This document shows positions 39,784 to 50,275 of a stretch of DNA of 64,000 nucleotides, in pieces. The notes below the pieces were generated by a model. It made no database searches. It was not told the origin of the DNA and was given only the letters and a program-made list of their open reading frames with translations. Position 1 is the first letter of the stretch; the number at the start of each line of letters is the position of its first letter. A program made the translations under genes and the position numbers. The DNA lies in NCBI GenBank assembly GCA_029560465.1, contig JAKQKX010000065.1, positions 5,148 through 69,147 of the forward strand, written 5' to 3'. Origin of the DNA: Candidatus Omnitrophota bacterium (lineage in GTDB: Bacteria > Omnitrophota > Gorgyraeia > Zapsychrales > JANLHA01).

Positions 39784-40506
39784 ATGTTCAGAGAGCTTTT
39801 CGGCGAAGATCCGCAAGCCATTAAACCATTCTGCCTCCTGGCGCCTTTTTACAGCGCCGCGATCCTGGACATATTACGAATACCCAGGCTGAAACAAGGC
39901 ACGCTCTACGCCTGCGGGCACAATCATGATTTGACTTTCATTCATACCCGCATCGGGCCGACCTTCCTGGGAGATGCGGTCCTTCACCTTGAAAAAACAC
40001 CCTGCCAGAATCTTACCCTGCTCGGAGCCTGCGGCGCCACTTCCATGACACCAGGGATGGAATTGGGAACCCCGATCTTCCCGTCAGGCAGTTACGCCAT
40101 GGACTCTTTCTCCGCGGTCTTGTCCAAAACTAAAACCAACTTCCCTTTTTATAAAAGTGATGCCGCGCTGACCGAAGACTTATTTCACCATAACGGCGGC
40201 GCCGGGCAACGCGTCTCCGCGGCTGCCAGCTTCAGCTCTTTTTATTTGGAAACGCAATATCGCGATCTTTTCCTCAAGAAAGGGATCGAAGTTGTCGACA
40301 TGGAAACAGCCGCTTTGTTCCAGGCCGCGGCGCTCACCGGGAAGAAAGCGGGAGCCGTGCTTTACGTTACGGATATTCTTGACATATCCCACCCCTTCCG
40401 CCACTGGTCAAGGGCAGAAAAACGCCTCTTGCAAGAGGCATCCCGGCAGGCGGCATCGATCATCCTGCGGACAGCCCGTCAAAAAAACAAATCGGCGAGC
40501 AATTAA
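39784..40506 (+). CDS. PNP_UDP_1 family nucleoside phosphorylase/nucleosidase (MTA/SAH nucleosidase or futalosine hydrolase-like)
   Basis: 240 aa with a C-terminal VVDMETAALFQAAAL segment characteristic of the phosphorylase-I family. The specific subfamily is undetermined. Confidence 0.45.
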   Translation: MFRELFGEDPQAIKPFCLLAPFYSAAILDILRIPRLKQGTLYACGHNHDLTFIHTRIGPTFLGDAVLHLEKTPCQNLTLLGACGATSMTPGMELGTPIFPSGSYAMDSFSAVLSKTKTNFPFYKSDAALTEDLFHHNGGAGQRVSAAASFSSFYLETQYRDLFLKKGIEVVDMETAALFQAAALTGKKAGAVLYVTDILDISHPFRHWSRAEKRLLQEASRQAASIILRTARQKNKSASN

Positions 40507-40725: not shown

Positions 40726-40734
40726 GAAAATATG

Positions 40735-40769
40735 AGCCCTTCGAATCTTTCGAAGGGCTTTTTCTTTTT
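40735..40769 (+). terminator. Intrinsic terminator/expression platform downstream of the riboswitch
   Basis: Perfect hairpin GCCCTTCGAA-TCTTT-CGAAGGGC followed by TTTTTCTTTTT. An RBS (AAGGAG) and the ATG of the next gene follow within 15 nt. Confidence 0.6.
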
Positions 40770-40782
40770 AAAGGAGCATTTT

Positions 40783-41046
40783 ATGAATAAATTTTTATTG
40801 ATATCCCTCATCGCAATTCTTCTTGCGCCCTTCTGTCCAAAATCCTCTATGGCGGCGCCGACTTCTTCCCAGGAGTTTAAAATTGTTGTGTATATTCCGG
40901 CGATCCCTGGGATCAATGCCCCCCTGGACAAACTGACTGAAGATGTGCGCGTCGACGGGATGACAGGGACATCATTTTACGTCACGACAGAAGAACTCCA
41001 GGAAGATGGCCAAAAGGTCTTCCGGGAAACGATTGTGGCCAGGTAG
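40783..41046 (+). CDS. Small secreted protein (87 aa) under riboswitch control
   Basis: A strong RBS (AAGGAGcattttATG) precedes signal peptide MNKFLLISLIAILLAPFCPKSSMA. There is no recognisable family. The track ORF starts upstream at 40708 inside the terminator. Confidence 0.5.
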   Translation: MNKFLLISLIAILLAPFCPKSSMAAPTSSQEFKIVVYIPAIPGINAPLDKLTEDVRVDGMTGTSFYVTTEELQEDGQKVFRETIVAR

Positions 41047-41054
41047 GAAGCTGG

Positions 41055-43811
41055 CTATTTAGCCTTTTCTTTGAGGGGGATATTGAACACGTACGTGATC
41101 CCTTCCGCGACTTTAATCTCATTCTTAATTTTAACTAACGGGATACAATTCTTAGGAAGAGAATTGACGTCCAGTTCCAGGACGTGTATTCCGGGCTTAA
41201 TATTGTCAAAACTATATGTCCCTTCAAAATCACTAAATGTTACCTCTTTCCCATCCAAAATAACCTTGGCTTTGGAGACAAACTTGTCATCCTTATCCAG
41301 GACATTGTTTTGATTAGTATCAATGAACACAACGCCGTAAACACCCGACTGGCTGGTCAGGCCGAAGTTGTTCACGTTCACTTTCCTATGCTCAACAATG
41401 ACATCCTTCATGAATCCGTTGGAATTTACGTAACCGGTCGGCAAAGTCGAAATATCCAACGCAACCCGCACCTTCCGGGCTTTAACCTTCGCGAAATATC
41501 GCCCCTGGCTGTTAGTTTTAACGACCTTATCCCCGACTTTGATCCCAATACCGGGGATGCCCTCTTCTCCCAAATCAAGAACAGTATTTCCGTTTATGTC
41601 GTTAAATACACGCCCTTGAAAAATTCCGGTGGGATTCCAGCGGAAAAAGGTATCCCAATTGGTCCGCAACCCTAACCGCACGTCAGCGTCATTAAAAGGC
41701 GAATTGTCAGGGTTTTCCGTCCAAACGCTGCGGATATTGCCATCTAAATATATTTCAAAATCACGATTCGGGCGGTAAACGAACCCTAAAGATCCACGGA
41801 TAGAGTCCTCCCCGGAAAGGAAACTGAACTGCTCTGTTGTCTTCTCTTCATCCCGGTATCGTAAGCTCATCCTTCCGGACAAGGGTTCGAACATCCTCCA
41901 GGTATAATCAACCCCCGTAGTCAGCACATGCGGATATGTCCAATCATCGGCCTGGATATTATGGACAAATGAATATTCATAATTCACGTAAAAACTCATA
42001 TCTGAAAAAAGCGGCATCCGCAGCCCCGCGGATAAAGAATTACGGTCAAACTCAGACGCCGGAGATTTATCATAACGGTTTTGCTGGAACGTCTGCCCGA
42101 GAGAAAACGTCATCGCCCGTCCCCCAAAAAACGGAAAACGCTGATTAAACATATTCATAATACTTCTACTTTGATGCGGGGAAATAAGCTGCGGGGTGTA
42201 GGAAACAAAAGCCCCTGTCGTCCATGAGGACGCGGACGATAGGGGATAGTTAAAAGAGCCGTTCCAGTCAACATTCAGGTCATCCTCTTTGTCGGGATTA
42301 AACAAAAAGCGGTCGCGGTAAATATCAAGATTCGAATTAAGACGGGTTTTCTCTCCCCGGAACGCATAACGTATATTGCCACCCACTTCCCCTCGGTCCG
42401 AAGGACGCCCGACCAGAGTCACATAGTCTTTATCAATATCGCGAAAATTTATGTTTAAAGTATAATTTTTCTTTTTAATCTCCGTCCTAATGACGTCACT
42501 ATAAACGTCTTCATCGGAGGCAATCTCCCCGTATATTTTGAAATCATTGAATTTGTGTTCAGTCTCCGCCGAAAACACTTTATCTTTAAGAAAATTATCC
42601 CGGGAGTCTCCATACCCCCGCCCGACATTAATCGTGTAATTATGGTCATCGTCAGGGAACAACGTGACACTCGCTCCTTCAATATGGGTTTTCTTAACAG
42701 ACAGGATCCCAGGACTGATAAACAAAAACTGGGCGCGGTCCTGCCCTTGAAAGACCGTATAACGAAGATTATGATGCGCCGCGTAACTTTCTAACTTGAC
42801 TCCCCGGAAACTCCGGCCCGGGATTGACAGGTCAGAGAAGAAGACCTCGGTGTCAAAGCCCCGAATTGTAAAATCCCGGAAAGGACCCACGAGGCCATTG
42901 GTCAGCCCTACCCGCTCGCCTATCCGCTCCGTGGATTCGGCATATTTATAAAAATTCATAGAAGCATCAAAATCGCCATAGGGCGTTTTCCCGTACATCC
43001 CAACCCACTGCGAAAAATTGAGGTTTGTCCGAACCATGTCCGGGATACGGTCCCCGAGATAAATACTGCTCCAATTATTAGAATACGCGATATTAAACGG
43101 CGGGGAATCTTCTTTCCCGGTCAATTCAAACTTTTCCACCTGCACGTTCTGCTGAATACGCGGGAGCTGGCCTTTAACGTTAAAAGTCCAGCGGCCCCGG
43201 TCGTCCCAGATGTGAAAAAAAGTATTCGCCCGGACTTTAGTCATAATACTGATACGATTTTGGTCCAACCGATCCACTTCCAGGATTCCTTCGTTGACCG
43301 CCAGGAACTGTTTAATATTCCGGCCCTGCAAAATATAAGTCTTATTCGTTTCGATTTCCAAGTCGGTATTAGGCTGCCTGGCCCACAGCGTGTCATCCAG
43401 GTTAAGGATTGCCGCATGTTTCGGTTTAAGAGCCTCTTCCTTGGCTTTCATCATGGCCGGCGATGCGGTAAACTGCTGCACGATGGCCGTCCGTTCCTCC
43501 TCCCTCTGTTGATCAGGGGTCACCACCTCTTTGGGAAAAACATCCGGTTGCACAACAGCCATGCGGCCTTCCTTAAAACGTTTAATGAGTTTAATGTATT
43601 TGAAAGGAGTTTCTTTGGATGGGGCAATCGCCTGAGCCTGTTCAAAATACAAAATAGCTTTATCATAAAAGCCCTTATCAAAAGCCCGGACGCCCAAACT
43701 CATATAATAATGATAATCAGATTCTGAAGCAGCGGAGCTTGCTCCAGGACAGGAAAGGATAAATAATGCAGCGATAAGAATTCCAAGGAAAAATTTGCTC
43801 ATACCTCGCAA
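41055..43811 (-). CDS. Large outer-membrane protein: N-terminal TPR region, central beta-barrel-like region, C-terminal carboxypeptidase-regulatory-like (Ig-like) domains; usher-like candidate
   Basis: 918 aa with signal peptide, TPR-like helices (YYMSLGVRAFDKGFYDKAILYFEQAQAIAP) and a long Tyr/Asn/Asp-rich beta-strand region. Two C-terminal CarbopepD_reg-like modules are present (VFNDINGNTVLDLGEEGIPGIGIKV...; VYGVVFIDTNQNNVLDKDDKFVSKAKVILDGKEV). Confidence 0.45.
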   Translation of the reverse strand: MRGMSKFFLGILIAALFILSCPGASSAASESDYHYYMSLGVRAFDKGFYDKAILYFEQAQAIAPSKETPFKYIKLIKRFKEGRMAVVQPDVFPKEVVTPDQQREEERTAIVQQFTASPAMMKAKEEALKPKHAAILNLDDTLWARQPNTDLEIETNKTYILQGRNIKQFLAVNEGILEVDRLDQNRISIMTKVRANTFFHIWDDRGRWTFNVKGQLPRIQQNVQVEKFELTGKEDSPPFNIAYSNNWSSIYLGDRIPDMVRTNLNFSQWVGMYGKTPYGDFDASMNFYKYAESTERIGERVGLTNGLVGPFRDFTIRGFDTEVFFSDLSIPGRSFRGVKLESYAAHHNLRYTVFQGQDRAQFLFISPGILSVKKTHIEGASVTLFPDDDHNYTINVGRGYGDSRDNFLKDKVFSAETEHKFNDFKIYGEIASDEDVYSDVIRTEIKKKNYTLNINFRDIDKDYVTLVGRPSDRGEVGGNIRYAFRGEKTRLNSNLDIYRDRFLFNPDKEDDLNVDWNGSFNYPLSSASSWTTGAFVSYTPQLISPHQSRSIMNMFNQRFPFFGGRAMTFSLGQTFQQNRYDKSPASEFDRNSLSAGLRMPLFSDMSFYVNYEYSFVHNIQADDWTYPHVLTTGVDYTWRMFEPLSGRMSLRYRDEEKTTEQFSFLSGEDSIRGSLGFVYRPNRDFEIYLDGNIRSVWTENPDNSPFNDADVRLGLRTNWDTFFRWNPTGIFQGRVFNDINGNTVLDLGEEGIPGIGIKVGDKVVKTNSQGRYFAKVKARKVRVALDISTLPTGYVNSNGFMKDVIVEHRKVNVNNFGLTSQSGVYGVVFIDTNQNNVLDKDDKFVSKAKVILDGKEVTFSDFEGTYSFDNIKPGIHVLELDVNSLPKNCIPLVKIKNEIKVAEGITYVFNIPLKEKAK

Positions 43812-43988
43812 CGTTTCTGCGGTTCCACGGCATCTTCTGAAAAATCCGAACTATAACCCAGCCTCTTGTCCCAAGAATATTTCCCATGGTATCTTTGAAT
43901 CAAATTCAGCATGAGGCCGAAACACAGAAAAATTTTCACCACCTTTATTATAAATATTATCCGGCAAAACAAAAGCGGGATCGGGAAA

Positions 43989-44885
43989 TTAATCCCGTGT
44001 GGCAACCAAATTTATATCCCCTTCCGGATTCTTATTAAAATCAACTTCGATGACCACACTGTCCCCGCGCTCCAAATCAAATGTCAAGACAACCGTATGC
44101 TTCCCCGGAGGGAGTGTTTCAGGAATAACAAATTGAAAATCCGCTTTCGCCTGCGGCGGGACATACAGCTTATTAACTTCTCCCCGGTCTTCGACCAAGC
44201 CATCCTCACTGAGGAAAAAGAAGACTCCTTTGGGGAAAAGCACGACATCCCCCTGGTTATGAAAATTCCCCTGCAGCACTCCTCCATTAAGAGCCAGATC
44301 TTCAACCTTCGCGGATTTGTTCGCATCCGTTGACTCGAGAAAAAACAAAGTGCCAATCCTGGTCACAAAACTCATCCCGATTCTTGACTTAGCCACATCC
44401 GGGCTCATCTCAAAAAAAAGCACGCCATCGCAGCCTGTTTTAAATGATTCCGGGACTTTAACCGAATACTTTACCTCTTGCTTCCCGAACGGCGGAAGGG
44501 TTATTGTATTGGGGCTAAACGTGATTTTGTCCGCGCAGGAATAATCAGAGGTGCCGCTCGGCATAAATTCTTTGTTCCCTTTATCAAACGGTTGGCGGTA
44601 AATAAAATCCTGCCAATACAATTTTACGGCTAACGGCTTATTGGTGCTGTTTGTGACTTCCAGGGAATCCACGATTCCCGAGCCCGGAGCCATTTCATGT
44701 TTAATGACGCTCTTCTGAATAATCAGTTGCGCAGAAACTCTGCCCGGCATACCGAGTAAACCGACAAAGAAAAAAGGGATTATATGGATAAATCGATGCA
44801 TAAGTTTAATAACTTTTGCGGGCAGGTTACTCCTGCCCGCAAAAGTTTCAATTTTTAAAAACAAATTACGGTCCAGGAGCAGCAA
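43989..44885 (-). CDS. Periplasmic protein with PapD-like pilus-chaperone N-terminal pattern (two Ig-like domains)
   Basis: The likely start is the internal MHRFIHIIPFFFVGLLGMPGRVSA (near 44801). The mature N-terminus AQLIIQKSVIKHEMAPGSGIVDSLEVTNSTNKPLAVKLYW follows the chaperone pattern A-x-[LIV]-x-[LIV]...[LIV]x[LIV]xNxxxxP[LIV][LIV]xxW. Single-base sequence reading around 44820 was ambiguous, so the coordinates follow the ORF track. Confidence 0.35.
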   Translation of the reverse strand: MLLLDRNLFLKIETFAGRSNLPAKVIKLMHRFIHIIPFFFVGLLGMPGRVSAQLIIQKSVIKHEMAPGSGIVDSLEVTNSTNKPLAVKLYWQDFIYRQPFDKGNKEFMPSGTSDYSCADKITFSPNTITLPPFGKQEVKYSVKVPESFKTGCDGVLFFEMSPDVAKSRIGMSFVTRIGTLFFLESTDANKSAKVEDLALNGGVLQGNFHNQGDVVLFPKGVFFFLSEDGLVEDRGEVNKLYVPPQAKADFQFVIPETLPPGKHTVVLTFDLERGDSVVIEVDFNKNPEGDINLVATRD

Positions 44886-45549
44886 CAGTCATGGTTAACG
44901 TGCCGGTGTAATTACCAGGCGTGTCTCCCGGATTAAACGGGATAGCCCCAGCAGGTTCCGATTCAAGCGGATTCCCGGTTGAAAGCCCGACATAAAAACG
45001 CAAATACTGCCCGTTGGCTAAAATATCCGCAGCATAAACAGTTTGTGCGATGTTCGCCAATATCGCCCGGGTTCCTATTTGAGTTTCAGTGTCATCGGTG
45101 TAAACATCCGGAGTCCCATTGTTGTCATTCGCAACAGGCGTTCCAATGGCATGAACTCCAAGGCCACTTCCATCATTCGGTGAGCCGTTGGGGTTGTCGT
45201 CATCCGTATAAGTAAGAGTAACATTAAGAGCACCCGCCCCATACGGCCACACATCAACAGCATAGTAAACATCGCCCAGGTAAGCATATTGAGGTGGATC
45301 CCCAGGATCCGCGACATTAGTGAGGATCGGCTCAAACTGCAAAGTTGTGGACGGCCAATCTGTGAATACCCCTCCGTCAACCTGGTAGACTACGAACGTT
45401 GCCGTGCTGGCGTTGTCGATGTCAACGGTAATCGGGAACGTCGCCGAGCTGGTCTGCGCCGAGGCGCCGGACACGAAGCACAACAAGGCCCCCACCATTA
45501 ACACCGTTAAGAAAGTTAGTTTTCGCATTTTCTTCCTTCCTCCTTTCAA
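44866..45549 (-). CDS. Secreted beta-rich protein (fibre/pilin-like subunit candidate)
   Basis: Signal peptide MRKLTFLTVLMVGALLCFVSGASA, Thr/Asp/Gly-rich with a Pro-rich C-terminus. No family assigned. Confidence 0.4.
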   Translation of the reverse strand: MKGGRKKMRKLTFLTVLMVGALLCFVSGASAQTSSATFPITVDIDNASTATFVVYQVDGGVFTDWPSTTLQFEPILTNVADPGDPPQYAYLGDVYYAVDVWPYGAGALNVTLTYTDDDNPNGSPNDGSGLGVHAIGTPVANDNNGTPDVYTDDTETQIGTRAILANIAQTVYAADILANGQYLRFYVGLSTGNPLESEPAGAIPFNPGDTPGNYTGTLTMTVAAPGP

Positions 45550-45557
45550 AAATTAAA

Positions 45558-46937
45558 CTAAATGGCACCTAATGAATACATCACTTGCACTTTATAATTA
45601 CCAGCCTGCATATTCGGATAAGGCTTCATACGGTAACTCACAGTCAAAACAGCTGACGACCCCAGGTCGTCTGAAACGTATAAAGGAACCTCACCCTTGC
45701 TTACTGGAGAAAAATCGTCGTGTTGAACGCTTCCCTGCCCATCAACAAGTTCTTCCTTGAATGTAAAGAATTCGCTGGAAAATTCCTCCCCCTCTTCATT
45801 AGTCAGCGGTGCGTGTAAAATTTGATTCACGACATACGGTTTGCCCAAGTTTGTCTTGACCGCAACTTTAATCTCCTTAATTTGCGGCGGGTCGGTTTCC
45901 AGGGTGCCGTGAAAACTCATACCCTCGGTGGGATACTCCACGTTCAGTTCAAAAACCGGGTCCACCACAAGCTCCAAATGAACATCAAACACGTGTTCAC
46001 CCCGCCTGCTTTCAACAATATATCTGGCAGCGCCTTCATAACGGCCCGCCTGGTAATTTTGCACCAAATCCTGATTCACGCTATAGTTAACTCCGATTGT
46101 ATCGTGGCTGGCGGTCCCTTCATAAATAAGCGTTTGTTCCGGCCGCAAATCACCCGAGGACTCCTGAAGGACCTCCCCCCGTTCCCCCCCAAAAACCAGA
46201 TATTGAATCAAACCCAATTCAACCGACTGCATCAACTCGTCTCTGGGGAAGGCGTCGATCTTTTGATAAATCTTAATGGGGTTGCCTTCAACGTTGTTCG
46301 TAAAAGAGATCGAAAAATTCGCCTCTGAAACAGGCCTCTGATCTGTTGTTATCCTGATGCGGTCCTGACCGGCATTCCCAGACGTTTCAATCTTTAAATC
46401 GCCGCCAGCTTCCAAAGTGACAGTCAGGACTCTTTCATCAATTGCCCCCTCACCTATCTGACGGACAGTATAAAACATCTGTCCCTGAAAAGATCCTGAA
46501 ACGCTCAACGCATCCGGGTCGACTTTATAAAAGACCACAAAAGAATCCGCGGTCCCGGAAGGGTCAGAAGAATAAATCTGCTGATCGGAAAGCCCCAAAG
46601 GCTCAACATCCTGAATATAGAGCGTGCCACGGGAATTGGAACCAAGCAACCCCCCGCTTAAGATAGCGGAGCGATACAGGGTTTCCCCTTTTTCATTAAC
46701 CAGTGGGCCTATCCTTTGAAAGACCTGGTATTGTTGCCCTTCATCAGAATTCACACGGATACGGACTTCCTTATCTTCTGAGGAGAAAGTATCTACACGC
46801 CCAAAACGGATACTCCCGCCCCCTTCAGCCGGAATCACAGACAGCGTCACCGCGGCAAAAGATAAATTAGGGATAATTTCTATTAAAAATAATATTAATG
46901 CTATAGTTAAATATTTTTTTAAGTTTACATAATTCAT
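45558..46937 (-). CDS. Secreted multi-domain beta-rich protein (tip/adhesin-like candidate)
   Basis: 459 aa with a signal peptide and repeated Ig-like strand patterns. It is the first gene after a 170 bp AT-rich promoter tract. Confidence 0.4.
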   Translation of the reverse strand: MNYVNLKKYLTIALILFLIEIIPNLSFAAVTLSVIPAEGGGSIRFGRVDTFSSEDKEVRIRVNSDEGQQYQVFQRIGPLVNEKGETLYRSAILSGGLLGSNSRGTLYIQDVEPLGLSDQQIYSSDPSGTADSFVVFYKVDPDALSVSGSFQGQMFYTVRQIGEGAIDERVLTVTLEAGGDLKIETSGNAGQDRIRITTDQRPVSEANFSISFTNNVEGNPIKIYQKIDAFPRDELMQSVELGLIQYLVFGGERGEVLQESSGDLRPEQTLIYEGTASHDTIGVNYSVNQDLVQNYQAGRYEGAARYIVESRRGEHVFDVHLELVVDPVFELNVEYPTEGMSFHGTLETDPPQIKEIKVAVKTNLGKPYVVNQILHAPLTNEEGEEFSSEFFTFKEELVDGQGSVQHDDFSPVSKGEVPLYVSDDLGSSAVLTVSYRMKPYPNMQAGNYKVQVMYSLGAI

Positions 46938-47111
46938 ATTTAATATCTTACTAAATAATCATCAAAAAGTATAGATATTTCTTTTCCATAAATATATGAA
47001 AAATAACAATTTATATTTTTAATAAATTTTTTTCTTAAATAAAATTAAAAATTTAAAAATTCTATAATAAAATTGAATCTTTATGATATAAATAATTTTA
47101 ATTAATATAAT

Positions 47112-48605
47112 TTATTCTTTAACTACGCTTTTTAACCATTCCTCGACTTCTTTGGAATATGGAGCAGGAATATTATTCCGTCCTATAATATGCTCGGTTA
47201 GCTGGGCAATATTTTCGGTTCTTAAAATAAAATGATGCCGCATCTGAGTTTCTATGACCGTAAAAGGCCCCGGGGCTTTCGCCAGCAATTGCACAAACTC
47301 TTTAAATGATTCAAATTCCTGGCCATCAACTTTCTGGTTCACTTCATTACTGAAATCATGGTATCCGATATTCACATCATCAGGCAGAACCTGAAGTAGA
47401 ACAACTAGTTCTTTCTTACGGGCGAGGTTTAAACGCCCCTCTCCTGTTAAATAGGCCATAAACTCCAAAGGGGCCTTTTCCCACCACTGATTCCCCCAGG
47501 ACTGCAGCAAATCCGCGCTGAGGACAGTAAAAACCATGCCTCCAAATATATAATAAGGAGGTTTCTTAAAAAAATTGGGCTGGGGAATTAATTCAGCGTA
47601 AGGATGCAACGGGACTATTTTCTCCTGAACAACTCCGTTCCGGACAATTTCAAAAGGGATTGCGTGACCAATGTGCTCATTATGAATGAGATAAGAAAAA
47701 CCCAACCGTTCATTATCTCGGAATTCGAAGGTGCCGTCCATGCCAATGGGAACGCCATTCACGGCCAGGATGATATCCCCTTCCTGCAATATCCTGTCTG
47801 CGGAAGAAAAGGGCAAAACCCTCGTGATATAAACCCCTCCATTATGATCCGTAAATTGATAAAACTCCCTCAGCGCCGGGTTTTCCGTGTTGTGATATTC
47901 CACCCCCAAGCTAGGAAATCCGTCATACTGTCCGTTATCATGTAAATCTTTCAGGAAATGATGAATGATCGGGACCGGGATCATATAACCGATATTCTGG
48001 CTGTGCCTCATGGCTTGCATGGCGACACCAACAATTTTTCCATCTTTAAAAACCGGGCCGCCACTGTTGCCGGGATTGATCGCCGCGTCGATCTGCACCG
48101 CCAGCAGCCGTTTGGATGTTTGCACATACGGGATAATTTCAATACGGGAAACCACCCCTTCGGTGATCGACAACTTATCCCCGCCCTCGGGGAACCCCAG
48201 CACGACAACCGTGTCCTGGAGCTGCGGGAGGTCACCGAAATCCAACGGGACGACCCCGTCGAAAAACCGAGGGTCATCCACGGTGAGGATGGCCAGATCA
48301 CAGTCGTGCCCGAGGGCTTCGACCCTGGCGGTATATTTCGTGGGATCGGATTCTTTCCGCACCTGGATGAAGGTGCTGTCAACGACAACATGCGCATTCG
48401 TTAAAATTCTTTGCCCCGCCAATATACACCCTGATCCGGTCGCGGAAAAACTTCCGCGCGACTGCCAAGGCCGGTAAAAATCCATTTGGTTGGACGTGAC
48501 AAAGATTTTAACAACCGAATCACGCGGGTTGTCACAATGGCCATCGGCAAGATAAAAGCACACACATCCGGCCGCCAAAAGAAAACATAGCAAGGCTTTC
48601 TTCAT
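47112..48605 (-). CDS. S1C-family trypsin-like serine protease with PDZ domains (HtrA/DegP-related)
   Basis: 497 aa with a signal peptide and the catalytic triad contexts TNAHVV, DLAIL and GNSGGPVF. A PDZ-like C-terminal half follows. Confidence 0.8.
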   Translation of the reverse strand: MKKALLCFLLAAGCVCFYLADGHCDNPRDSVVKIFVTSNQMDFYRPWQSRGSFSATGSGCILAGQRILTNAHVVVDSTFIQVRKESDPTKYTARVEALGHDCDLAILTVDDPRFFDGVVPLDFGDLPQLQDTVVVLGFPEGGDKLSITEGVVSRIEIIPYVQTSKRLLAVQIDAAINPGNSGGPVFKDGKIVGVAMQAMRHSQNIGYMIPVPIIHHFLKDLHDNGQYDGFPSLGVEYHNTENPALREFYQFTDHNGGVYITRVLPFSSADRILQEGDIILAVNGVPIGMDGTFEFRDNERLGFSYLIHNEHIGHAIPFEIVRNGVVQEKIVPLHPYAELIPQPNFFKKPPYYIFGGMVFTVLSADLLQSWGNQWWEKAPLEFMAYLTGEGRLNLARKKELVVLLQVLPDDVNIGYHDFSNEVNQKVDGQEFESFKEFVQLLAKAPGPFTVIETQMRHHFILRTENIAQLTEHIIGRNNIPAPYSKEVEEWLKSVVKE

Positions 48606-48640: not shown

Positions 48641-50275
48641 TTACTTAAACTGAATTATTTCGCTGTTTAGAGGCTTTGTGTTCATTAAATTTTCGACACG
48701 GTATTTCGTGCTTTCGAGAATCGGAAGGGCTGCTTTGCTGTCGATCATGCCCGGAGGGGTAACAGAATCACGGTTGGCGGGAGCAGGGACTTCTGGGACA
48801 TTCTTGTCTTCTGAAACAGAATCAGCAGGGAAATCAAACGTGTTTTGATCAAAAAGGCTTTCCAACCCGCGGAGCTGTTGTTCAATTTCAAAAATATACA
48901 TATCCCTTTTCTTCAACAGTTCACAGGTATCGTCCAGCCGGCCTTTATATATTTCCAGAATCCCCTTCACCTGAACTAACTCCTGCTCTTTCTTAAAATG
49001 GCTTTGCCGGTAAGAAATAACCTTGCGGTCCAGTAATCCGACGAGCTGATTAAGTTCGGAGATATGGGATTCTTTTTCCTTCACAACATCCTCAAGAGTC
49101 TGATATTTCGCGCTTAAAGCGCCCAATTTCTCCTCAAAAGCCGTCACAGGGCCACCCGTCCCGAGGGGAAAAAGGACCGGCCCAGCCTGATCAGAAACTG
49201 GGGCCTCGAAGCCCCCCCCCGTGGCCAGATGAACCGCCTCTCTGGTTTTTAAACGCTCCTCCAGTTGCCGGAGTTGCGACTGGAACTCCGCAATCCGTTC
49301 GTCCTTCTCTCCAATAATGCCCTGAACAAGCTGTAACTGGGCCTGGGACTCTCTCAGCTGTTCGCTTAACTGCCGGATCATGGCATCCTTGTCCTCAAGC
49401 ATCTTCTGTTTATCAAATCCGTCCAGAGACATTCCGGCAAGTTCTTTGGTTAACTCCGCCAATTTTCTATCCGTGTCAGTCATTTTTCGCTGAAGATCGG
49501 AGAACTCCAGTCGAACCTCTTGCAAGTCACCGCGCAACGATTGGATTTGCTTGTTCTGCATCTCAATCTGGGCTTCTTTCTCCGCCAGTTGCTTGTGCAA
49601 CCCCTCCGAACTCTGGTCTGTTTTTTCTGGGAGTGGTAGCCGTTGCCTTGCAATTTCCTTGTCAACCAACGCCTGTTTGAGGGAACGCAGCTGGCTGTTG
49701 ATCCGCTGTTTCGTTTCGAGCGTCTCCATAGACTGTTCTTTCTGATCCAACATCAGCTTAACCGCAAGGCTTAAGGTTTCAACATCATGGGCGTCTCGGA
49801 TCTGCTCTAATTTTGTGGCTAACGCCTGGATATCCCGTTTGGGTTTGACCATCGAGGCCAAGGCCTCAAAATTTTCCTGGTTTTTATCCGTCACAAGGTT
49901 GTTTTTTTTAATAAACGCGAAAAGCCGTTCATTCGATTCATCCAGGTACGCAATCCGGGAATTCAGGAAATCCGTTTGATCCGCCAGGTCCAGGAATTTT
50001 TTGAGTTTATATTGCTCATACTTATCCTTTAAAACGGCCTCCATGTCTGGCCGAGACAAATAGTCCCTGGCTTTGGGATGTGCCGGGTTAAGAAGGGTCA
50101 CAATCAGGAACTGATTCATGGCCAAAAGATAATCCTCTTTCTCAAGCAACCGTTCGCCCTTGGCCAGATAAAAATCAACAAGGGAATATTTTTCTTGAGC
50201 AAAAATTCTTTCGGGGAAAGTCAGTCCCGCAGCAATCATGGAAAACGATAAGATAAATATAAGGAATTTACGCAT
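48641..50275 (-). CDS. Secreted long coiled-coil protein with N-terminal TPR-like segment
   Basis: 544 aa with a signal peptide and extended heptad-rich Glu/Lys/Leu/Gln sequence. Confidence 0.5.
   Translation of the reverse strand: MRKFLIFILSFSMIAAGLTFPERIFAQEKYSLVDFYLAKGERLLEKEDYLLAMNQFLIVTLLNPAHPKARDYLSRPDMEAVLKDKYEQYKLKKFLDLADQTDFLNSRIAYLDESNERLFAFIKKNNLVTDKNQENFEALASMVKPKRDIQALATKLEQIRDAHDVETLSLAVKLMLDQKEQSMETLETKQRINSQLRSLKQALVDKEIARQRLPLPEKTDQSSEGLHKQLAEKEAQIEMQNKQIQSLRGDLQEVRLEFSDLQRKMTDTDRKLAELTKELAGMSLDGFDKQKMLEDKDAMIRQLSEQLRESQAQLQLVQGIIGEKDERIAEFQSQLRQLEERLKTREAVHLATGGGFEAPVSDQAGPVLFPLGTGGPVTAFEEKLGALSAKYQTLEDVVKEKESHISELNQLVGLLDRKVISYRQSHFKKEQELVQVKGILEIYKGRLDDTCELLKKRDMYIFEIEQQLRGLESLFDQNTFDFPADSVSEDKNVPEVPAPANRDSVTPPGMIDSKAALPILESTKYRVENLMNTKPLNSEIIQFK

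Follow-up and report, generated by a model that had tools for sequence, protein, structure and literature searches.

We analysed a 64,000-nucleotide stretch of DNA from a Candidatus Omnitrophota bacterium (contig JAKQKX010000065.1; hereafter the window) and report a five-gene cluster, A to E, that is conserved across the uncultured phylum Omnitrophota and is probably a previously unrecognised relative of the chaperone-usher pilus machines. Three of its products (A, B and E) are secreted proteins, one (C) is predicted to be a periplasmic protein with two immunoglobulin (Ig)-like domains, and one (D) is an outer-membrane protein whose predicted domain order is that of an usher. The balance of the evidence tips towards a self-contained system that exports and assembles a surface structure, most likely a fibre. 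An earlier note on this DNA had described a chaperone-usher-like surface-fibre cluster of four genes, and this stands in outline through the models of C and D and the gene order, with fibre formation as the part that stays conditional. Gene E, a conserved hairpin after B and a variable number of B copies go beyond that description.

Genes A to D lie one after another on the minus strand, downstream of a tract (46938–47111, minus strand) with a guanine-plus-cytosine (GC) content of 9.2%, against a window average of 49.8%. The tract is the probable promoter region of the cluster; its count of sigma-70-like hexamers did not exceed that of shuffled sequence. As the earlier note had it, four co-directional genes follow this AT-rich tract, and we recovered all four open reading frames (ORFs). 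Gene A (45558–46937) encodes 459 residues, as described before. The lengths previously given for the other three products, 227, 298 and 918 residues, are those of the maximal ORFs of B (44866–45549), C (43989–44885) and D (41055–43811). These ORFs are real, but the products, judged from the lengths of homologues and from ribosome-binding sites, are probably shorter, at 220, 270 and 915 residues, with starts at ATG 45528 for B (44866–45528), with a GGAGG site in front, ATG 44801 for C (43989–44801) and ATG 43802 for D (41055–43802). Gene E (40783–41046, plus strand) is convergent with D, the two stop codons lying 8 nucleotides apart, and has a good Shine-Dalgarno site; it encodes an 87-residue precursor. 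Judged by eye, Sec-type signal peptides are present at the N-termini of the cluster products.

To survey related loci, we scanned one genome per species with a 14-sequence alignment of D and searched all ORFs in the loci found with iterative profiles. The scan returned 34 loci with a relative of D, and exact look-ups added more. The order A-B-C-D is kept in about 33 Omnitrophota loci, wherever there is enough upstream DNA to see it, and A is first in every cluster. Proteins from different loci are 28–80% identical, and the flanking genes differ and are unrelated. Because the order persists in some 33 loci between unrelated flanks, A to D are real, co-selected genes and not chance ORFs. Of the 32 loci with room for E, 30 have it at the 3′ end of the cluster, in convergent orientation. 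Two loci, L029 and L031, carry extra B-C pairs after D (two pairs, at L029:4224–7907 and L031:7302–10980), and there E follows the extra pairs, so that E belongs to the cluster. The copy number of B varies as well, with three copies in L025 (in tandem, upstream of A) and two in L032.

Every named homologue, and nearly all of the related loci, carry an Omnitrophota label. A few cluster-bearing contigs are labelled otherwise, as 'Methanosarcinales archaeon' (L017, JAIWAR010000056.1), 'Lysobacterales bacterium' (L019, JBLINE010000088.1) or, in several further cases, 'uncultured Planctomycetales'; the likely cause is mis-binning or mislabelling of Omnitrophota contigs. An exact look-up of the window's own D sequence returned no record.

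We next turned to the candidate chaperone. Modelled with AlphaFold2 from a 14-sequence alignment, C folds with a predicted local distance difference test (pLDDT) score of 87.9 and a predicted template modelling (pTM) score of 0.76 into two beta domains, at residues ~26–157 and 164–269. The model is that of a periplasmic two-Ig-domain protein with a PapD-like fold. In a Foldseek search of the PDB its top matches were the Enterococcus faecium WxLIP structures 9i1y and 9i25 (E 3e-12), followed by the pilus chaperone CfaA (E 1e-10) with a target TM-score of 0.64, the highest among chaperones. Further chaperone matches were to Caf1M, CupB2, FimC, CsuC, DraB, PapD, SafB, YadV and EcpB; those to CfaA, Caf1M, CupB2, FimC, CsuC, PapD, SafB, DraB and EcpB had E values of 1e-10 to 4e-8. 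Altogether, about 38 of the top 50 PDB matches were chaperones of chaperone-usher systems, from the alpha, gamma, pi, sigma and ECP groups. The earlier note had described C as chaperone-like and expected it to model as a two-domain Ig-like chaperone, and a confident two-Ig model that matches WxLIP and then chaperones agrees with it.

The sequence of C gave fainter signals in the same two directions. The best PDB sequence match of a 36-sequence profile of the C family was the fimbrial chaperone EcpB, at a borderline, suggestive E of 0.021. The match spans profile positions 93–161 and includes an invariant arginine (R148 of the mature window protein), which lies in a strand assigned by DSSP at 147–157 and aligns with the arginine of the EcpB segment ARIGTILVV. 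K77 of C is also invariant. About 30 of the 36 members carry a lysine or arginine close to where the first strand begins; window C does not have one at that column. In PapD, Arg8 and Lys112 form a basic pair in the inter-domain cleft that anchors the C-terminus of the subunit. The second signal was Pfam WxLIP_PGBD (DUF916), with sub-threshold matches in 22 of the 36 C members (best E 2.2e-7); window C itself scored 17.3 bits against a curated cut-off of 27.3 bits. The chain ends directly after its second domain, without a hydrophobic tail. Model and sequence together place C as a soluble member of a PapD-like/WxLIP-like structural class, nearest to WxLIP by sequence. The best PDB match of the single C sequence, a PtsGHI antiterminator at E 0.005, was set aside as unrelated.

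The C family is neither uniform nor small. Several members (P0140, P0154, P0186, P0206 and others) are longer, at 360–390 residues, and have a third Ig-like domain. One of these, P0140 (370 residues, L039:2571–3683), lies in the four-gene context. P0140 and P0186 match WxLIP_PGBD as well as WxLIP_HBD, P0154 matches WxLIP_HBD alone, all below threshold, and P0150 (568 residues) has the appearance of a tandem duplication. Searched against 1.84 billion representative proteins, the C profile matched 223 at E≤1e-30, 2,568 at E≤1e-10 and 8,050 at E≤1e-3. The C family is therefore surrounded by a much larger, uncharacterised superfamily.

The likeness of C to WxLIP raises a different account of the whole cluster. 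In the WxL clusters of Firmicutes, a WxLIP protein, composed of DUF916 and DUF3324, is encoded alongside WxL proteins of small and large size. Its predicted mode of binding to the WxL partner is insertion of a beta-strand (PMC10599100), the same principle as the donor-strand complementation performed by chaperones. The cluster could accordingly be a counterpart of WxL clusters in a diderm and make no fibre: C would form a stable, non-polymeric strand-insertion complex with A and B, and D would only export the complex or hold it at the outer membrane as a surface adhesin. Beyond the top structural match of C and its only recurrent Pfam similarity, this account draws on the WxLIP_HBD match of a three-domain C variant from the same cluster, and on the combination of one small and one large secreted partner with a WxLIP-like protein, the commonest make-up of a WxL cluster (PMC10599100). 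Set against it, none of 65 A and B members (38 B and 27 A) gives a WxL-domain (PF13731) match at E≤1, where a WxL cluster would have at least two WxL-domain proteins, and PDB sequence searches with A and B did not return the WxL chain of 9i25. The membrane helix at the C-terminus of WxLIP is absent from C, and the host is a diderm whose cluster includes a dedicated giant outer-membrane barrel with usher-like architecture. Multiple copies of B and the hairpin that follows B, described below, suggest a stoichiometric excess of one subunit. We consider a non-fibrous WxL counterpart unlikely, though the foremost of the alternatives, and favour assembly of the chaperone-usher type.

D was modelled with AlphaFold2 from 59 sequences (pLDDT 87.5). 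After the signal peptide come a tetratricopeptide repeat (TPR) module at residues 28–80, amounting to about one TPR unit, a disordered linker (84–118), a small beta domain (134–215) and a short helix; these are followed by an unbroken run of 26 long strands (residues 240–720), assigned by DSSP on the model, and by two Ig-like domains at 728–820 and 823–915. When this model was searched against the PDB with Foldseek, FimD and PapC ushers took all of the first 15 places (E values of 5e-21 to 1.6e-9); the alignments cover ~720–820 columns for full-length chains and ~545 for the isolated FimD barrel. The predicted order, an N-domain, a large barrel and two C-terminal beta domains, is that of an usher. 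Among matches confined to the barrel, the FimD translocation domain again ranked first (E 1e-10, target TM-score 0.48). That the protein might be an unrelated transporter, the outcome that the earlier note had named as telling against an usher-like D, finds no echo in these matches.

By sequence, D presents a different face. Its matches are to the N-terminal TPR and to two C-terminal SdrD_B/CarboxypepD_reg domains, and PDB sequence searches returned TPR and SdrD matches only. Among 14 homologues of D, SdrD_B was found in 14 and PF13629 in 11 (best E 1.5e-7), and some homologues are annotated 'pilus assembly protein N-terminal domain-containing protein'. The Pfam matches and the model thus both agree with the previous description of D as TPR helices, a long beta-strand region and two carboxypeptidase-regulatory-like Ig domains. 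PF13629, the 'pilus formation protein N-terminal region', is shared with the secretins CpaC and RcpA of Tad/Flp pili. Unlike those, D is a single-chain barrel without a secretin domain, and the cluster has neither a Tad ATPase gene nor platform genes beside it. The most conserved stretch of D is TFFHIWDDRGRWTFN, within the N-domain, and a conservation peak there fits an usher-like docking role. D had also been considered as a lipoprotein, a reading that we dropped, as for E, because the cysteine is not conserved.

The TPR module and the barrel could also be read in another way, with D as a general porin or a TPR-barrel exporter of polysaccharide (of the PgaA, BcsC or PelB type) and A, B, C and E as bystander Ig-like proteins. 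Two D homologues weakly match the porin family BBP2_2, and the barrel on its own resembles ushers barely more than it resembles other barrels. The known exporters, however, have a long TPR superhelix, 16–18 strands and accompanying synthase or glycosyltransferase genes, whereas D has about one TPR unit in place of a superhelix and ~26 predicted strands, and there are no glycosyltransferase or polymerase genes nearby. The three predicted periplasmic beta domains of D stand in usher order, and the strict gene order with C and the secreted proteins extends across distant loci. An exporter or porin of this kind is highly improbable; an usher-like translocon remains the better candidate identity for D.

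The three secreted proteins had no Pfam, NCBIfam or PDB sequence match, either singly or as family profiles. A consists of three tandem homologous beta-rich domains of ~150 residues each; alignment of its profile with itself by hhalign gave probabilities of 99.5 and 98.8 for the shifted copies. Each domain starts with the pattern LSVxP...G..S.xF and ends with G-x-Y/F-x-G-x-hydrophobic-x-Y. B (mature length ~196 residues) is fast-evolving across the family and rich in threonine, glycine, alanine and aspartate; the earlier note had called it secreted and Thr/Gly/Asp-rich, which the composition and a signal peptide judged by eye confirm. Its mature N-terminus is a conserved alternating strand (FxVSATIP), and its extreme C-terminus is an almost invariant strand, GxYxGTLTxTATxx. 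When B was compared by hhalign with A and with C, only the generic C-terminal G-x-Y-x-G strand aligned, and we do not claim that B is homologous to the domains of A.

E is smaller still. Behind its signal peptide lie ~63 residues in which two strands are conserved, FKISVTIPAIPGVN at the N-terminus and, at the C-terminus, one that ends in TIVxK/R. With signal peptides removed, the N-terminal strands of E and B aligned by hhalign at E 4e-4 over 24 columns. In a search of 2,285 small ORFs with a model of the B N-terminus, members of the E family took 14 of the top 20 places, none of them individually significant. The likeness of the E strand to that of B is thus weak but specific. In A, B and E alike the last element is a conserved beta-strand whose C-terminal end is fixed, without a variable tail, which fits the expectation if that terminus sits in the cleft of a chaperone.

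Between B and C, at 44811–44847 (minus strand), lies a GC-rich hairpin with a perfect 16-bp stem. A hairpin of different sequence occupies the same place in most loci (L004–L018 and others), and the mean best folding energy of 50-nucleotide segments is −21.9 kcal/mol after B, compared with −12.6 after A and −9.8 after C. We regard the hairpin as a candidate partial terminator or stabiliser of the mRNA that would raise the expression of B relative to C and D, and the proportion of subunit to machinery may depend on it. An abundant, fast-evolving protein rich in threonine, glycine and alanine would also suit a two-dimensional layer or a sheath at the cell surface in place of a filament, with B as the lattice protein and D as its anchor in the outer membrane. 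To our knowledge, neither a chaperone-like protein such as C nor an usher-like domain order such as that of D is a feature of known S-layer systems, which counts against a layer. The Omnitrophota member V. archaeovorus LiM has been glossed as a 'coated coccus' (PMC10066038), but we found no specific support for a layer in the cluster and hold it to be quite improbable.

We therefore return to chaperone-usher pili, that is, the classical Fim and Pap, the alternate CFA/I and ECP and the archaic Csu systems, as the closest comparison. The likenesses are a two-Ig-domain chaperone-like protein, a large barrel between an N-domain and two C-terminal beta domains with FimD and PapC as best PDB matches, and a compact operon that includes one large and one small secreted beta-rich protein. 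To these we add a small-subunit gene that has undergone duplication in some genomes and has a hairpin behind it. On this comparison, we judge it rather likelier than otherwise that the cluster is a strand-complementation export and assembly system of chaperone-usher type, its product most likely a fibre. A, B and E would be exported by Sec into the periplasm, where C would capture them by beta-strand complementation at their conserved extreme C-terminal strands and hand them on to the D barrel. The N-domain, as the most conserved part of D, would dock the chaperone-subunit complexes. B, abundant, fast-evolving and sometimes duplicated, would be the major subunit, polymerising by donor-strand exchange, and the hairpin after its gene would raise its expression relative to C and D. 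A, with its three tandem domains and its place as first gene, would be the distal or adhesive component, a candidate tip protein. E, which has terminal strands and little else, may be a mini-subunit that caps, anchors or gates the assembly.

Several results weigh against this interpretation. The Pfam and NCBIfam models for the chaperone-usher pathway all fail to match the cluster. For window C, no chaperone model (PapD_N PF00345, PapD_C PF02753 or fimbrial) matched at E≤1, and PapD_N and PapD_C were absent from the 25 most-matched families listed for the 36 C members. The hhalign comparison of the C family profile with E. coli FimC was not significant, and the PapD-like N-terminal pattern that had been read in C is accordingly a proposal. 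Window D likewise had no match to Usher (PF00577), PapC_N (PF13954) or PapC_C (PF13953) even at E≤10; none of these usher models was among the 25 families, out of 32, that the 14 D homologues matched most often, and the D family profile did not align significantly with E. coli FimD. The usher has 24 strands and a plug inserted between barrel strands 6 and 7. D is predicted by DSSP on its model to have ~26 strands, and none of its 59 homologues has a plug insertion, the barrel region measuring 488–501 residues throughout; the only sizeable loop in the D barrel, at ~359–375, has 17 residues. The flanking domains of D belong by sequence to the PF13629 and SdrD_B/CarboxypepD_reg families, so that the N-domain is of the CpaC type and the C-terminal domains are prealbumin-like. 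The next non-usher barrel followed the isolated FimD barrel at 3e-9, with TM-scores of at most 0.38, and the lead of the ushers in the full-length search comes mostly from the flanking domains. Because the margin of the barrel alone over unrelated barrels is small, the resemblance of D to ushers is mainly architectural. The earlier view that D is not a canonical usher is therefore upheld, on the missing usher models and plug, the strand number, the TPR module and the N-domain.

The subunits add to this list. The N-terminal motif of A is repeated at the start of its internal domains, so that the N-terminal motif shared by the secreted proteins may be an ordinary first strand and not a donor-strand extension. 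A and B are candidate pilins on sequence features, and B had no match to a known pilin family. The cluster also departs from chaperone-usher pili in the TPR module and disordered linker added to D, in a first-gene protein built from three tandem homologous domains and in the convergent mini-protein E, for which those systems have no counterpart.

Taken together, these departures and the WxLIP signal in C allow a more specific suggestion, which we put forward tentatively. The cluster may represent a distinct, phylum-wide class of strand-complementation system between WxL/WxLIP clusters and chaperone-usher pili. It would combine a soluble, WxLIP-related chaperone with a plug-less barrel of ~26 strands whose usher-like architecture was acquired from other domain families. 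In chaperone-usher pili, capping and gating are supplied in cis by PapH-type terminators or by the usher plug. In the proposed class, E would supply capping, anchoring or gating in trans.

The surroundings of the cluster are of a different kind. Directly upstream, on the minus strand, lie a gene for an HtrA/DegP-like secreted protease with PDZ domains (47112–48605) and one for a 544-residue coiled-coil secreted protein (48641–50275); beyond E lies a phosphorylase-family gene (39784–40506, plus strand). Other flanking genes encode an aldo-keto reductase and a spore-photoproduct-lyase-like enzyme. From their sequences, these neighbours are unrelated housekeeping genes, and they accompany the cluster in close relatives only. 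The HtrA-like protease and the coiled-coil protein were considered as members and excluded because they are its companions solely in those relatives. The iterated D-family profile matches the coiled-coil protein at E 1.6e-19, and the part common to both appears to be an N-terminal TPR-like module. In L004–L006, ORFs of ~570 residues upstream of A match the same profile; none was seen in more distant loci.

Two further hairpins lie close to the genes. A terminator-like hairpin with a T-run at 43976–43997 (minus strand) in the window sequence overlaps the C stop codon, and the gap between C and D measures 177 nucleotides (43812–43988); simple co-transcription of C and D may not hold. A 12-bp palindromic hairpin with T-runs on both strands (40734–40760), between the phosphorylase-family gene and E, has the appearance of a bidirectional terminator and ends ~23 nucleotides before the E start codon. 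Of the 34 ORFs of at least 250 residues in the window (1–64000), 33 are on the minus strand. No tRNA genes were found in the 64-kb window.

The catalogue of chaperone-usher pili has been built almost wholly on the Usher and PapD models of Pfam. The cluster described here is invisible to those models, yet it reproduces, in the predicted structures, the chaperone fold and the usher domain order. What is new is a variant of the chaperone-usher principle that sequence models do not detect and that has sequence links to the WxL clusters of Gram-positive bacteria. It suggests for this principle a greater age or a wider distribution than present classifications allow. Through its link to WxLIP, C offers an evolutionary connection, open to testing, with the surface-protein clusters of Gram-positive bacteria, the mechanism of which is still under study, and the combination of a plug-less translocon with the conserved mini-protein E poses a concrete question of gating.

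Omnitrophota are ultra-small, uncultured bacteria that are thought to depend on hosts. We found no paper that links them with chaperone-usher systems. The principal genomic survey of the group covers type IV pili, Tad pili and giant ORFs, and the word 'usher' does not occur in it (PMC10066038). An adhesive-fibre system conserved in this way would thus be a fresh candidate for how Omnitrophota attach to their hosts.

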